Shown here: one piece after another, positions 31,839-58,052 of the stretch | How positions within the stretch are numbered: position 1 is the first letter of the stretch | Layout: each line of letters opens with the position of its first letter | NCBI RefSeq assembly: GCF_001677475.2 | Contig: NZ_CP015229.1 | DNA: 64,000 bases | Source of the DNA: Escherichia coli | GTDB lineage: Bacteria; Pseudomonadota; Gammaproteobacteria; Enterobacterales; Enterobacteriaceae | Direction: 5' to 3' (one strand) | Translations under genes and position numbers: made by a program | Notes under the pieces: generated by a model | Databases searched by the model: none | Told to the model about the DNA's origin: nothing | The model's input: the letters and a program-made list of their open reading frames with translations, nothing else

Positions 31839-32244
<406 letters not shown>

Positions 32245-32356: not shown

Positions 32357-33390
32357 TCAAGCCTTAAGAGGCTTTGTGTATGTTCGTGTAATCCATCCAG
32401 TAATAAACTCGTCCCCTGATTTAACCTGCACGAAAAGCCATTGGCGATCTTTTTTATCTAAAACAGCCACTATAGTATTTTTGCCAATGCATTCAATCAC
32501 CTCACTATTTATAGAAGGACTGACGTGTAATCTTACGTTCTCACCAGTTATAAAACGAAAACCATTGAGATCTTCCCAACTAATTTCTTTGTTTTCTTTA
32601 ATTAATTGTTGTTTTGATATTGGTTTATCCTCAAACAGAGATATAAAATATGATTCTGCCTTGTGTATTCCCAGCAAGGTTTTCTCTTTTCCGTAATCAA
32701 TAAAAGCACCAAACACAACTTGAGAAAATATAACCATTAGTAACCATTGCAGTGGATAAGGAAGCTCTTTAAATGAATCAACAAACTTTGAGCTAGGTTT
32801 ATTTAATCCTTTATTTTGAACATTACTTTTGGTGTGTGATGTTTCAGTAGCACCTTCAGCATAAGCCTGCGCAATAGATGAAATCCCCTGCTCTATTATT
32901 TGATGTAATGAAGCATTTCTTGTTCTAGCATAGTGATCTAGTACTTTCTTTATGTCTTGGCTTACATCTGTTTTATAACTTGCACTTTGTTGTAATTCTT
33001 TAAGTATCGCTTGCATGTTATTTAAACCAGCTTGCTTATTAAGCACCTCAAGCTGTTTTCGTAATGGCATAGCTATTTCGGCCTGTTTCCTTAGCATTTG
33101 AATATATCTATTTGCGTCATGAGGGAAAAGAGCCTGAGTCTGTTTCTGTAAAATCGCGATATGTTCACGATACTTGCTGCCTATTCCAGCCAAGTTCGGC
33201 ATACTAGCCAATTGTTTTCGAAGAGAGTTACTAATTACAGCTTGTCTATTCAATCTTGTCATATTTTGAAAAGAATGTTTTTCTATTCCTAATTGTTTTT
33301 GCAAGATCGCTACGTGATCTTTGTATGATGGAATGAGCACTGACTGTTTATACAGTAACTTCAACTCATTAGAATTAGTAATTTTTGTCA
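32357..33390 (-). CDS. membrane protein with internal repeats and SH3-like C-terminal domain (sim-region)
   Basis: AT-rich; repeats HVAILQKQ / EHIAILQKQ, one TM, C-terminal beta-rich domain; start uncertain. Confidence 0.45.
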
Positions 33391-33465
33391 TATTATTCCA
33401 TTTATATAATAGAATATTACGCAACCAATGTTTTATTGATTGCGTTAATCTTTAACACAGAAAGA

Positions 33466-33942
33466 TCATTTGCCTCGTTTAATACATCCATCCATTTTGG
33501 CTTGTTGATACAACTTACTTAGCCCAGAAAGAGGGAATGTAGCAATTTTTTCATTATCAACATAAGCATCAATCATATTAGCATTTGAATCTGCTGCATC
33601 TTGCCAAAAGGCATACCACCAAGAATCTCCAACCATTGATCCAAGATTGCTAAAAGGATATTGCTCACCATCTATAGTTAATACTATTTTATTCTTGTCA
33701 GCATTATACTCTTTTTTATTATTCGACGAACTTAGCAACAAGCCTAAACTACCTGCACTATCTGGTGAACCATACATGAATCCCATATCACATAAAAAAC
33801 TTATCTTATCACCATTATGATTATGGATTGTATATTCTCTCCCCCCTCTCTCTTCAATTACATTCCATTGTAGAGGATCAATTTTTGCAAATGTTCCTGC
33901 TGAAACTAACGATACAAATAATAAAAACCATCTCATATTCAT
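33466..33942 (-). CDS. secreted protein with signal peptide (sim-region)
   Basis: 158 aa; N-terminus MNMRWFLLFVSLVSAGTFA; AT-rich. Confidence 0.55.
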   Translation of the reverse strand: MNMRWFLLFVSLVSAGTFAKIDPLQWNVIEERGGREYTIHNHNGDKISFLCDMGFMYGSPDSAGSLGLLLSSSNNKKEYNADKNKIVLTIDGEQYPFSNLGSMVGDSWWYAFWQDAADSNANMIDAYVDNEKIATFPLSGLSKLYQQAKMDGCIKRGK

Positions 33943-49530: not shown

Positions 49531-49782
49531 TTAGTTACCGCTGATAGCGCGGTTGTAATCATTAACGTTGCGATTCTTCCTGTTAATCCCCATCAGCATC
49601 GTTTCTGTATCGAGGATATACGCTGGCAGATCATCAAAATATTCACTGCTAAACTCTGGCATTCTGCACATAAATGCACTTTTGGGGGCAGGGTGGTTAA
49701 CCTTTGTCGGCGTCGGCGTTAAATTCGCTGATCGACTCCCGGAGCAACCGCTGAGTGTCAGCAGGAATGCGCTGGCGAACAT
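49531..49782 (-). CDS. putative lipoprotein
   Basis: ATG 49782; MFASAFLLTLSGC with lipobox LSGC. Confidence 0.5.
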   Translation of the reverse strand: MFASAFLLTLSGCSGSRSANLTPTPTKVNHPAPKSAFMCRMPEFSSEYFDDLPAYILDTETMLMGINRKNRNVNDYNRAISGN

Positions 49783-50119
49783 TACCCGCCGCAACCAGTT
49801 GTTTCTGAACTTCAGCTTTTCGTTCCATTTGCCTGTCAGCATATTTGGCTTGTTCTGATTCATTTTTCACTTCCTGGCTGTGAAAATGTTGCTCTGCTTT
49901 GTTCATCGTCTCAATGGTCTGGTTAAGATCCATTATTGACTTATCACGTTCCTTAACAGCCTGATCAAGACTGCCAATTTTCTCCATGGCTTGCTTTAGC
50001 TGATGACGTTCCCATGCAAACCCAGCACCAACAAGTGCGCAAATCAGAACAAGAACACCAGTAGCAGCAAGTTTCTCCTTCAAAGACAAAGCTGTTTTTA
50101 ACGTAGAAAAGAATGACAT
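49697..50119 (-). CDS. membrane-anchored coiled-coil protein
   Basis: ATG 50119 after AGGAGGA RBS; TM then helical region; overlaps lipoprotein gene out of frame. Confidence 0.55.
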   Translation of the reverse strand: MSFFSTLKTALSLKEKLAATGVLVLICALVGAGFAWERHQLKQAMEKIGSLDQAVKERDKSIMDLNQTIETMNKAEQHFHSQEVKNESEQAKYADRQMERKAEVQKQLVAAGNVRQRIPADTQRLLRESISEFNADADKG

Positions 50120-50418
50120 GTCTTCCTCCTGAAGAAAAATTATCAATGAAGTCCTTTGTTACTGTGCCGCTTTGTTTAATTCATCAAGAACAGAATCAGG
50201 AACCAAAGCGGCGACTGCGCTGGCTGTGCTGGTCTTATTTGCTGATGCTTCCGCAAGCGCGGTACCAATAGCATGGCCATAAGCAGTTATGGCTATGCTG
50301 GCGCTTTCCTTCGCCCGTTCATACTGCTGTTGCAATGCAACAGTGGGCGCTGTTGTTTGGTTGAAAACTCCCCCAAACTGTTCAGTTGCTACTTTCAGAG
50401 CTTCAATTTGCTTTTCTG

Positions 50419-50946
50419 TTAGTGCTGGTGGGGGAATGGCAGTGCCGCCGCCTGAACCAGTGCCTGACGAGCTTTCAGAGCCAGTGTTAAGGGTCTGGTT
50501 AATCTCCCCATAGCAGCGACTAAACTTGATGTATTAAGCGCGTTTACAGCGTCCTCAAGCGATTTAGTAATAGTCACATCACCAATGGCAATAGAGATTG
50601 GCAGTTCTGAAACTTCTCGCTCATTAGCACGGCAGTAAACATCCCAACCAATATCGAGTTGAAGCAGCATTGACAGATCTGCATAACCAGCCAACAGGTC
50701 CGCGTGCTTAGTTGCCAGTTCTCCAATGTTCGTTAAGCCGGTTGTGGTTGTTCTGATCGTTGAAACATAGCTGGTAATAGTGTCAGGATAGACAATTGTA
50801 TCCAAAATTAATCCGGTCAATTCTTCTGCAAGCTGTTTTGCCGTGTTAGCACTGCTTCGTGCCGATGTTATGGCACCTGGTGTTTTCATCCCACCGGCTG
50901 CGGCCAATTTTTTATATGCGGATAATTGGTAGTCTTTTTCCAGCAT
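50419..50946 (-). CDS. hypothetical protein, possibly frameshifted with downstream open frame to 50159
   Basis: 175 aa ORF; the -1 frame stays open about 124 further codons with no start codon. Confidence 0.45.
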   Translation of the reverse strand: MLEKDYQLSAYKKLAAAGGMKTPGAITSARSSANTAKQLAEELTGLILDTIVYPDTITSYVSTIRTTTTGLTNIGELATKHADLLAGYADLSMLLQLDIGWDVYCRANEREVSELPISIAIGDVTITKSLEDAVNALNTSSLVAAMGRLTRPLTLALKARQALVQAAALPFPHQH

Positions 50947-50954
50947 GATATCTC

Positions 50955-51239
50955 CTAACTTACCTGAACCAGGCCGTCACCTGACGCTACGGTAGAGCCG
51001 CATGAAACAGGGTCACCAACGCATACGATCCCTTTACCATTGACGGTAAACCATGCCCTGGTTGATATAGCTTGCCCACCGTGCGTACTGTTTCCATCGG
51101 TATGCTGTGCATATTGCTTACCATCAACTAACACTTCGACTCCGTTGACTTTAAGTAGTGGTTCACTCTCTACAGGAGGCCTGGATGGGAATCCTCCGTG
51201 CCCCGAACAAATGCTGTCTTTTGTTGCAATACTTGCCAC
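50955..51239 (-). CDS. PAAR-like small protein
   Basis: 94 aa; Gly/His/Cys-rich with ...VCVGDPVSCGSTVASGDGLVQV resembling PAAR repeats. Confidence 0.6.
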   Translation of the reverse strand: MASIATKDSICSGHGGFPSRPPVESEPLLKVNGVEVLVDGKQYAQHTDGNSTHGGQAISTRAWFTVNGKGIVCVGDPVSCGSTVASGDGLVQVS

Positions 51240-51692: not shown

Positions 51693-52590
51693 GCACTGGA
51701 AAAACATTACTATTTATAAACTTTCTCGTGAGGCGGATCTGACCGACTTAGAAGATAAAAAGAAAATGATCCTTTTCACGCCATGCGGTAGTCAGGATAT
51801 GGCCAAGTTCGGTTTTGTATCGCCATTTGGTGATAATTCCGAAGTTATCGCTATGCATGGAAATGGTTTTATCCTTGTTGAAGCAAAGCGCGAAACAAAA
51901 ATTCTTCCCCCGCCGGTTATCCAGCGAGCTATTCAAGAAAAAATTGAAAAACTTGAGCAAGAACAAGCGCGTAAACTGAAGAAAACAGAGAAGGATTCCC
52001 TGAAAGACGAAGTTCTGCATTCTCTTCTGCCACGGGCTTTTTCAAAGTTTTCTGTTATCCAGGCGATCTACGATGGTTCAACTAAACGTATCTATATCAA
52101 TGCCAGCGCGCGGCAGGCAGAGGATATGCTCGCACTTATGCGTAAGTCTCTGGGTTCTCTTCCTGTTGTTCCCCTAAGTGTTGAAAATCCCATTGAATTA
52201 ACGCTGACCGACTGGGTACGTGATGGTAGTGCTCCACAGGGATTTCAAATGGGGGATGCGGCAGAACTTAAGGCAGTGCTTGAGGATGGCGGTATTGCCC
52301 GAGTGAAAAAGCAGGATTTGGGAAGCGATGAAATTTCCACACACCTGGAAGCTGGCAAGCTCGTCACTAAGTTGGCACTCGACTGGCAGAACCGCATTAA
52401 ATTTACACTGGACCATAACTTCAGCCTTACCAGCGTCAAATTTGCGGATGAATTGCTTGAGCAGAACTCTGATATTGATAGTGAAGATGTTGCGCAGCGA
52501 CTGGACGCAGATTTCTTCCTGTTGACCAGTGAAATTTCGTGCCTGGTTGATGCTCTGGTAAATGCCCTTGGCGGAGAGGCTAAGCAGTGA
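51685..52590 (+). CDS. RdgC-like recombination-associated protein (hrdC position)
   Basis: 301 aa from ATG 51685; N-terminus [15 protein letters not shown] like RdgC MLWFKNLMVYRL. Confidence 0.7.
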
Positions 52591-55500
52591 AAGAGCTGTG
52601 CTATGGATCTGTTTGCAGTGGAATTGAAGCCGCGAGTATTGCCTGGGAACCGTTGGGTATGCGTCCGGCGTGGTTTGCTGAAATCGAGCCTTTTCCATCT
52701 GCCGTTCTTGCGCTCCGCTGGCCCCATGTCGCCAACCTTGGCGACATGACAAAACTTGCCAAAAAAGTCTTGGCTGGGGAAATCGAATCCCCTGACGTGC
52801 TCGTCGGGGGAACACCATGTTTTACCGCGGGGCATATGGTTCTTTGTAAAAATGGTTATAAACCAATAGAAGATGTTTGCCCTGGCGATTACGTAGTCAG
52901 TCATCTCGGGCGGTTACAACAAGTAAAAAGAGTTGGTTCAAAAATAGCTAATACGGGGTTACTTAATGCCGTTGGGCAGCCTTTAGGTATAAGAACAACC
53001 AATGACCATCCCTTCCTGGCTGTTCGGTGGAAAGCCCAAAACACCCGGAAAAATGGCACATATTTTAAGAGAGAGTTGTTGTCTGAACCGGAATGGCGAG
53101 CAGCATGTGATATGCCGGGATATCAATGGTGCGCTCTAACTAATTTCAATATTGCATCTCCAGATATTTGTTCTCGGTTCTTGTCTGAAGAACAGGCTAT
53201 GTATCTTGCGGGCGCTTATGTTGGCGATGGATATATTAGGAGATGGAGAGGTAAATCTAAGAAGGCGGTTGTTTTTGGCATAAATTGCCAGAAATTGAGA
53301 AAGTTTCATTGCCGCATACCAGAAAACATATTTTCCGTGGCAAGCGAAATCCGAGGGAGCATCAAAGTAACCTTGAATGATACGTGTTATGCCAATTGGC
53401 TTAATGAACATTTTGGCGAGTTAAGCCATGCTAAGCGTATCCCTGCATGGGTGATGTCGCATCCATTGCGTCATGTGTTTTTACAAGGCTATCTTGATAC
53501 TGATGGGACACCAAGTGGTAAAGCGGGATTTAGAATTAATAGTGTTAGTCCTGCGCTTGCTTGGGGCGTTGCGGGGTTGTCACAGACTTGTGGTTATGTT
53601 TCTTCGGTCAGCTTTATTGAAGTTGAGCCCAAAAAAGTGATCGAGGATCGCGTGGTAAATCAACGGAATTATTATCAGGTAACAATCTGCCCGCAGAAAT
53701 TGTCACGTAAATCAAGATTGGCTCATGGAATGCTTTTACGAACAGTCAAAGAGTTTAAATCGGTAGGCCTAGATACTGTATACAACATAGAAGTCGAAGG
53801 TGATCATTCCTATATCCTCAATGGTGCGGTGGTCCATAACTGTCAGGCATTCAGTATCGCGGGCTTACGTGGTGGGCTTGATGATGAACGCGGCGCGCTA
53901 ACTTTGAAGTATGTGGAGCTTGCAAATGCAATTGACGACAAACGGTCTGAGTCCTTCCTCAAACCGACAGTTATCGTCTGGGAAAATGTCCCAGGAGTCC
54001 TGTCATCGGCAGATAACGCCTTCGGATGTTTCCTTGCCGGATTGGCTGGAGAAGATGCGCCATTTGAACCAGGTGATCGACCTGAATCAGGAAAAAGTAA
54101 CGCGTTCTGGCGGTGGGATGGCAAAACCGGTTGCCATGCTCCAAAGTGGCCGCAGTGTGGTTGTATTTATGGACCGCAGCGAAAGGTGGCCTGGAGAATC
54201 CTTGATGCCCAATACTTCGGAGTGGCACAACGACGCCGACGCGTGTTTGTTGTCGCAAGTGCTCGAACAGACCTCGATCCCGCAACGGTACTTTTTGAGT
54301 TCGAAGGCGTGCGCCGGAATATTGCGCCGAGCCGAAAAAAGAAGGAAATCGCTTCCGCCATTATTGCAAATGGCGCTGCAATCAGTGGCGAAAGCCTAAA
54401 TCCATGCCTACACGCTGACATGCCACCCGGTATGAAATCGACGAAAGCCGTAAACGCTTTCAGGATGGCGGCATTTGGGGAATATATTGACGATGAAACC
54501 GCATCGACAGTAAAGGCAAGAGATTTTAAAGATGCCACTGACCTTGCCGTTTTTAGCAGCACAGGAGCAGGTTTTTGGTCAGAAGGGCATGGTACATTGC
54601 GGGCACGTGAGCAAGAAAGCCATGAGCATCTTGTTACATTGGCTTTTCCTGAGCGTATGAGCGGTACACAACATGCTGCAACTAAGAATACTTCACCATC
54701 TCTAATGGCTAAAAATCCAACAGCTGTTTGCTATGAAGTAAGAAACGCAGAAGTAGCTGTCCGCCGTCTTACCCCTGTCGAATGTGAAAGGCTGCAAGGT
54801 TTTCCTGATGGGCATACGTTGATCCCGACGGAAAAGCGTAAAAAAGTTAATTCAGATGAACTGGCATATCTTCGCAATCACTATCCAGATTTAAGCGAAG
54901 AAGAGGCCGCGATGCTTGCAGCTGACGGACCGCGTTACAAAGCGATCGGCAATAGTATGGCAATACCAGTAATGCGCTGGATTGGCGATCGGATTACTAA
55001 GGCCGTATGTCGGCAGAAAGAAGGAAGTGAAACAAAAGAGCGAAAAGTTAAACCAGCGGCAGAATTCGAACGGTCCATATTCAAATGGGCTGGTGGAAAA
55101 TTTGGTGTTCTGGAACAAATCTTTCGCTATTTGCCAGAAGGGAAGCGCCTGATTGAACCTTTCGTTGGTGGCGGAGCTGTCTTCATGAATGCCGGATACC
55201 AGGAAAATCTGCTAAATGATGTGAATGCTGACCTGATTAACTTTTACAAGACTCTGCAACGCGAGGCGCATTCACTTATCACTCTGGCACATCGTTTCTT
55301 CCAGGACTACAACACACAGGAAGGATACCTGGCAGTACGGAATGCGTTTAACAAACAAGTCTATGATGATTTACATCGCGCAGCGGCGTTTTTGTTCCTG
55401 AACCGACATTGTTTTAACGGATTGACGCGTTACAACCAGGCCGGTGAGTTCAATGTCGGTTACGGGAAGTATAAAACTCCGTATTTCCCATTACAGGAGA

Positions 55501-55844
55501 TGGAAGCCTTCCTCGGTGCGGAAGGGCGGTCTGAGTTTGTATGCGGTGATTTTGCAGCGGTGATTGAAGCTGCCGGAGAAGGAGATGTCATCTTTTGCGA
55601 TCCGCCGTATGAACCGCTTCCAAATACAGAGGGATTCACGAACTATTCCGGTCATGACTTTAAGTTTGAAGAGCAAAAACGCCTGGTGTCTCTGTTGACG
55701 GATGCTCATCGTCGAGGTGCAAAGGTTCTCATTACTAACAGTGGCGCGCCAAACATCAGAGAGCTTTATCATGACAGTGGCTTCAGAGTGGAACCTCTTT
55801 TTGCCAGACGTTCTGTGTCTTGTAAGGGGACACTCGAGGTGTAG
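52587..55844 (+). CDS. bifunctional DNA methyltransferase: C5-cytosine domain (interrupted by intein) fused to Dam-like N6-adenine domain
   Basis: 1085 aa; C5 motifs GGTP/CQAFS, ENV, QRRRR, RLQGFP, GNS; Dam motifs [10 protein letters not shown] and DPPY. Confidence 0.8.
52818..53840 (+). other. intein with LAGLIDADG homing-endonuclease domain inside the methyltransferase
   Basis: 341 aa from CFTAGHMV to GAVVHN followed by +1 Cys; TTNDH block; [11 protein letters not shown] and [11 protein letters not shown]. Confidence 0.7.
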
Positions 55845-57626: not shown

Positions 57627-58052
57627 ATGCTCGGTATTCTCAAAAAGAAATTCCGCAAAGCGGCTGGCGGAGTCAAGAAGATGGAAAACCGTGATGCGGT
57701 GGAAGCGACTGTCTGGGGCGCATATTCCATTGCATACTCTGACGGCACCTGCGATGCGAAAGAAATTGCAGTATTGGAAAAAACCATTGCAGCACTTCCT
57801 GCCTTTGCGCCGTTCTCCGGTGAAATTGCCCAGATGAGCGCCAATATTCGCGCTCAATATGAAGCCTCGCCGCGCCGAGCGAATGCCCAGGCTTTACGTG
57901 AACTGGCTGACGTGTCTGGAACTAATGATGCGGTAGATGTTCTGTGCCTATGCATTGATATTGCTGACCAGGATGGCATTGGGGCAGAAGAGCAGGAGCA
58001 ATTGAAGAAAATTGCCCAGGCTCTTCAATTGCCACTGGAACAGTATATCTGA
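57627..58052 (+). CDS. TerB-like domain protein (tciA position)
   Basis: 141 aa; GAGG RBS; helical, acidic. Confidence 0.65.
   Translation: MLGILKKKFRKAAGGVKKMENRDAVEATVWGAYSIAYSDGTCDAKEIAVLEKTIAALPAFAPFSGEIAQMSANIRAQYEASPRRANAQALRELADVSGTNDAVDVLCLCIDIADQDGIGAEEQEQLKKIAQALQLPLEQYI

Follow-up and report, generated by a model that had tools for sequence, protein, structure and literature searches.

A P1-like plasmid prophage of Escherichia coli carries the baseplate gene upfB as a probable pseudogene, one G short in a five-G run

In a stretch of Escherichia coli DNA of 64,000 nucleotides, referred to below as the window, a 175-aa open reading frame (ORF) on the minus strand runs into an open -1 frame without a usable start of its own. 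Homology identifies the two frames as the two halves of one known baseplate gene of phage P1, upfB. The arrangement is very probably that of an ordinary pseudogene, in which a genuine and heritable deletion of one base from a run of five Gs has broken the P1 gene. The gene and its parts are laid out as follows.

50159 to 50946, minus strand: upfB, frameshifted, 788 nt, assigned by homology and by the UpfB annotation; the intact gene has 789 nt and encodes 262 aa
50419 to 50946, minus strand: 175-aa ORF, consisting of native UpfB residues 1-147, 28 out-of-frame residues (RLTRPLTLALKARQALVQAAALPFPHQH) and a TAA
50159 to 50506, minus strand: segment in the -1 frame, encoding UpfB residues 148-262 (Gly/Ser linker and Ala-rich C-terminal region) with the native TAA
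50506 to 50509, minus strand: run of four Gs (G4), the site of the one-base deletion, at nt 434-438 of the intact gene (codons Gly147 and Glu148)
50430 to 50434, minus strand: run of five Cs (C5), identical in both intact alleles of a three-way alignment

The layout of the two frames is largely the one described in the initial annotation. The 175-aa ORF (50946..50419) starts with the ATG at 50946, which has AGGAG just before it, and is terminated by the TAA at 50421-50419; the ORF list and the translation bear out this end as well as the continuation of the -1 frame down to 50159, with 124 codons free of stops from 50533 to 50162 and a stop codon at 50161-50159. On the minus strand, the codons of the 0 frame start at 0 mod 3 and those of the downstream frame at 1 mod 3, hence the -1 relation between the two. 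The frames overlap by 115 nt (50533-50419), and the CCCCC run (50434-50430) does lie within this overlap, as had been reported. In translation, the -1 frame gives GSESSSGTGSGGGT and then an Ala-rich segment, and GEINQTLNTGSESSSGTGSGGGTAIPPPALTEKQIEALK likewise stands ahead of the Ala-rich tail, in agreement with the Gly/Ser linker and Ala-rich segment noticed earlier. The further claim that this frame has no ATG, GTG or TTG start is correct for its first 66 codons and fails beyond them, where a TTG at 50335 opens a mechanical 58-aa ORF. Independent translation of the C-terminal part was considered and rejected: this TTG is the sole start in the -1 frame, and it has no Shine-Dalgarno-like sequence upstream. 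The openness of the -1 frame is not a product of chance, since only 46 of 20,000 shuffles of its 372 nt remained open and since the frame matches the protein family PHROG 1559 with an E value of 4e-50.

The assignment to upfB is drawn from several comparisons. In a tblastn search, UpfB aa 147-262 matched the second frame. The repaired protein covers positions 1-263 of PHROG 1559 (263 positions; E=1.6e-133), and the same match is divided in the window as it stands, with the 175-aa ORF taking positions 1-154 and the -1 frame taking positions 148-263. The initial annotation had proposed a comparison with intact homologues from other P1-family genomes, on the reasoning that two separate genes, each with its own start, would speak against a single broken gene. 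That comparison has now been run, and the intact homologues are one gene, a single coding sequence (CDS) of 789 nt and 262 aa. This is how upfB is annotated in the P1 isolate OP279344 (UYD72460.1); among the best 60 plasmid matches, 59 span the 789 nt within one annotated CDS, and the RefSeq E. coli genomes do likewise. In the reference P1 genome AF234172 (AAQ14037.1), upfB is annotated from an earlier start and has 846 nt. The residues encoded downstream of the break are conserved in 10 intact homologues.

The position of the gene is also that of upfB in P1 (AF234172 and OP279344), between upfC and ppfA/mlp and near the repA/oriR region, and its nucleotide identity to the phage and plasmid copies is 91-96%. 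Both neighbors are intact:

50955 to 51239, minus strand: upfC (PAAR-like spike tip), intact, upstream of upfB
49697 to 50146, minus strand: ppfA, intact, downstream of upfB, with mlp embedded out of frame at 49531-49863

The upfC product matched PF05488 with E=8.5e-6 and 26.4 bits, just below the 27-bit cut-off. What sets the window copy of upfB apart from that of P1 is that it is one G short, with the frame broken after residue 147. At 788 nt it lacks the uninterrupted frame of ~262 codons, and because of the stop at codon 176 it is to be regarded as a pseudogene copy of the PHROG 1559 family and not as a functional full-length member.

A 2026 cryo-EM study placed UpfB at the distal tip of the P1 tail, where it forms three trimeric "tripods" beside the gp5/UpfC spike (PMC12810830). 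A sequence search of the PDB with UpfB gave no match, and a Pfam search with it gave no family. An AlphaFold2 model of the repaired protein was set aside as unusable (mean pLDDT 32.9, from an alignment of 10 sequences that are all at least 90% identical).

The parent of the broken gene is found in a public protein collection. When one G is restored to the window copy, it encodes a 262-aa protein that matches the entry P0016 exactly, and P0016 is encoded on a Logan contig from the sequencing run ERR6099504. The window allele is the intact allele minus one base, since the ERR6099504 gene is identical to it at all 788 shared positions, without a substitution, and the sole gap is an extra G at nt 438. 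The DNA flanking upfB on that contig is only ~97.6% identical to that in the window. One missing base at a homopolymer, in a gene that otherwise equals its intact counterpart, is what homopolymer slippage would be expected to leave. The three-way alignment likewise has one gap, where the intact alleles read CTATGGGGGAGATT and the window reads CTATGGGGAGATT. Reference P1 has GGAGG at the deletion site, which is not a homopolymer, whereas the other intact alleles have GGGGG.

The initial annotation had put its emphasis on the CCCCC run. In the alignment, the two frames diverge instead at the G run at 50506-50509, which lies ~72 nt upstream of the Cs. The C run was ruled out both as the lesion and as a slip site because it is unchanged in both intact alleles of the three-way alignment; CP148313, which is intact at this site, reads CCACC there. 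The possibility of a frameshifted gene or pseudogene, which had been raised among other options, is the one that these comparisons uphold, given a window sequence that is an intact allele minus one G and homologues that are single coding sequences. The broken allele is rare. Among the plasmids (PLSDB) that have this local sequence, an allele-specific search gave 454 copies with five Gs (G5) and 2 with four at upfB, and the complete E. coli genomes of RefSeq, 5426 in number, yielded no G4 copy.

The deletion is not confined to the window's own allele. Several other P1-like plasmids have an upfB that was broken independently. Three of these alleles (CP121349.1, CP043240.1 and P0002), 39-47 substitutions away from the window, have the identical G5-to-G4 change and continue into an identical out-of-frame tail. 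Judged from these alleles, the recurrence is consistent with a minor hot spot of mutation in a gene that is dispensable. It could also be taken for a mutational switch, by which the tripod protein would gain or lose its C-terminal part, with the G tract as a contingency locus. A frame that changes as a G or C run grows or shrinks by one base, and does so repeatedly in several backgrounds, is indeed reminiscent of contingency loci; the change is present in at least four upfB backgrounds that differ by ~40 substitutions (the window, CP121349, CP043240 and P0002), and another allele, P0003, found on 11 contigs, encodes a 150-aa form of UpfB that ends in GEIN. The resemblance does not go far, however. 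Known phase-variable loci usually have tracts of ~7 or more bases, and the tract of upfB has only five. The OFF state accounts for 2 of 456 plasmid records (~0.4%), and two of the four G4 cases come from records whose quality is in doubt. In addition, the upfB of CP148313.1 is broken elsewhere, by a deletion in a run of As close to codon 20, as one would expect from the random loss of a dispensable gene. We regard a switch as very unlikely.

It is worth considering whether the missing G could be an error of sequencing or assembly, one in which G5 was under-called as G4 in the window's record and the true gene is intact. A contraction by one base in a five-base homopolymer lends itself to such a reading, and there is a second contraction of the same kind in the window:

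55826 to 55829, plus strand: G5-to-G4 contraction in dmt (ORF 52587-55844), by which the last 14 residues are replaced by 4 (TLEV) and a stop

The 14 residues lost from Dmt are the conserved end of its Dam-like domain, and the contracted allele is again rare among plasmids (371 with G5 and 2 with G4). Furthermore, both of the PLSDB records with G4 at upfB are found in GenBank only and neither has a CDS at upfB; one of them has no annotation at all, and one differs from its nearest relative by deletions in T runs. Counts of small indels against several references were too noisy in the divergent intergenic stretches, and only the comparison of CP121349 with SJ46 was suggestive. The contraction in dmt at first favored a sequencing error, an explanation that lost its footing once these alleles had been seen in many further samples. 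An identical 175-aa product is present in at least 15 other samples from three separate assemblies, namely GCA_018683295.1 (2 samples), a Logan contig of SRR25942434 (common to 12 samples) and SRR3929499, and over 6.6-12.5 kb these carrier contigs match the window with an identity of 99.98-100%. All of them have G4 at upfB; the contig common to 12 samples also has G4 at dmt, and the GCA_018683295.1 contig has G5 there. This nested pattern, with the upfB deletion in all carriers and the dmt deletion in a subset, looks like that of real mutations. In a comparison with 34 P1 proteins, UpfB alone was split over two frames, and none of the 38 proteins compared in the adjoining Mu-like prophage was split. 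As read from these assemblies, then, the upfB lesion is heritable and identical across independent data sets. The sequencing indel that the initial annotation had allowed for is thus very unlikely. The carrier lineage is clonal (100% identity), and so it offers no evolutionary depth from which decay or conservation after the frameshift could be read.

The dmt gene of the window has one more feature, separate from its frameshift. Its product has 1085 aa, compared with 754 aa in reference P1, and intein signatures (Hint_2, LAGLIDADG_3 and Intein_splicing) are seen at residues ~77-418, inside the C5-methylase part.

Equally unlikely is a programmed -1 frameshift or other recoding, by which the ribosome would slip back in the overlap and make a regulated amount of full-length UpfB beside the 175-aa form. 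The arrangement does have some likeness to E. coli dnaX and to G/GT of phage lambda, with an upstream ORF, an overlapping -1 frame that lacks a start of its own and, in this case, a location in a phage structural region. The downstream frame is in the -1 register, the sequence G GGG AGA permits a perfect re-pairing of tRNA-Gly ahead of AGA, a rare codon in E. coli, and a slip at this site would yield the exact native sequence of UpfB; the G4 allele has also been maintained in a lineage. Programmed -1 sites such as those of dnaX and lambda G/GT, however, contain a slippery heptamer that is conserved and in most cases accompanied by stimulators, and their two-frame layout is kept across homologues. 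Matters are different for upfB. No slippery heptamer of the form X XXY YYZ was found in the 0 frame of the 115-nt overlap, where the only sites for re-pairing by a single tRNA are U UUA, G GGG and C CCC. The predicted RNA fold of the overlap (minimum free energy -31.3 kcal/mol) is comparable to that of shuffled sequences (mean -27.7 kcal/mol; z=-1.1), and the same sequence is present in alleles that are in frame. The split itself is not conserved, as seen from the plasmid counts given above, and there is an in-frame allele that equals the window's in all other respects. The G GGG site for re-pairing arises of itself when the homopolymer loses one base. The programmed option of the initial annotation consequently finds no support, the split being rare, the heptamer absent and the in-frame twin at hand. 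Trace rescue of full-length UpfB through a -1 slip at G GGG AGA could still give some product, and there is no sign of an evolved site. Conceivably, the G5 tract, which lies where the N-terminal region of UpfB meets the linker, is a recurrent switch that removes the C-terminal part of the tripod and keeps residues 1-147, or the slip at G GGG AGA gives a low level of full-length protein. In either case the tip of the P1 tail would vary in a regulated way and the gene would not simply be decaying; we attach only a very slight probability to this.

The surroundings of the gene deserve a description of their own. The window from 34.8 to 64 kb is a P1-like plasmid prophage in which the gene order of P1 is kept, from ant1, kilA, repL, gp21-23, parBA, repA, upfA, mlp/ppfA, upfB and upfC on to uhr, hrdC, dmt, ban and others, with protein identities of 93-100%. 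The pair formed by ppfA and the embedded mlp (49531-50146, minus strand) resembles an embedded spanin pair of the Rz/Rz1 type, and in several phage records ppfA bears the name "outer membrane lytic protein Rz" and its embedded partner is listed as a lipoprotein. At the tciA position (57627-58052, plus strand) there is a divergent allele with ~30% protein identity to P1 TciA, next to neighbors with 71-99%. A T4-to-T5 difference in tciB was examined as a candidate frameshift and rejected, as it lies at the edge of the divergent tciA allele and tciB is not split. At 32357-33942 (minus strand), two unrelated genes stand in place of P1 simC and simB, one for a 355-aa protein with a weak SH3_3 match and the other for a 158-aa protein of the YfjT family (from precomputed Pfam matches on identical contigs); the site looks like a replacement in a variable region.

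On its other side, the P1-like prophage meets a second prophage. Positions 1-31918 of the window belong to a divergent Mu-like transposable prophage, which has genes for the C-terminus of MuA, MuB, Gam, GemA, Mor, lysis, terminase, portal and gpT, as well as sheath, tape measure, baseplate, fibre and com/mom genes. Over the matched stretches it is 72-75% identical in nucleotides to Mu-like prophages of Enterobacter and Klebsiella, and its com/mom genes are ~89% identical to those of Mu. The com/mom side is the right end of the prophage and abuts pmgC, with the junction at ~31919:

31871 to 32203, minus strand: truncated pmgC, encoding aa 1-95 of 188 and then running into the Mu-like right end, which gives a 110-aa junction ORF

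It seems that a Mu-like phage has inserted into the P1-like plasmid prophage. That this was a simple insertion is an inference only, as a single pmgC/Mu-like junction lies within the window. The junction ORF recurs on the NCBI contig that has G4 at upfB, and in SRR3929499.

Taken together, these observations are best accounted for by the loss of one G from upfB in a prophage that probably does not depend on the gene. Replication slippage on the G run would be the most likely origin of the deletion. Translation from the normal ATG at 50946 would then proceed through the native residues 1-147 and 28 codons out of frame to the TAA at 50421-50419, leaving residues 148-262, with the Gly/Ser linker and the Ala-rich region, cut off in the -1 frame, where they have no usable start. 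The truncated product would presumably have lost its function. In a genome-wide CRISPRi screen, both upfB and upfC were non-essential for P1 and pmgC was essential (PMC10695390). The broken allele may persist because upfB is dispensable for plaque formation. Selection on the gene may also be relaxed, for the P1-like lineage probably makes no virions any longer, given that the essential pmgC is cut off at the end of the Mu-like prophage. The P1-like element would in this case survive as a plasmid, with its virion and accessory genes starting to decay.

The upfB of the window is, in the end, a known gene with a textbook lesion. What it offers in practice concerns annotation: the 175-aa ORF is best entered together with the open -1 frame as one upfB pseudogene with its lesion at 50506-50509, and the recurrent G5-to-G4 hot spot is one that annotators will meet again. 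Some features of the context, such as the Mu-like prophage at pmgC and the intein of Dmt, are of more interest than upfB itself. The P1-like prophage is probably defective, and with pmgC cut off and frameshifts in both upfB and dmt, this P1-like plasmid lineage appears to be decaying as a phage.
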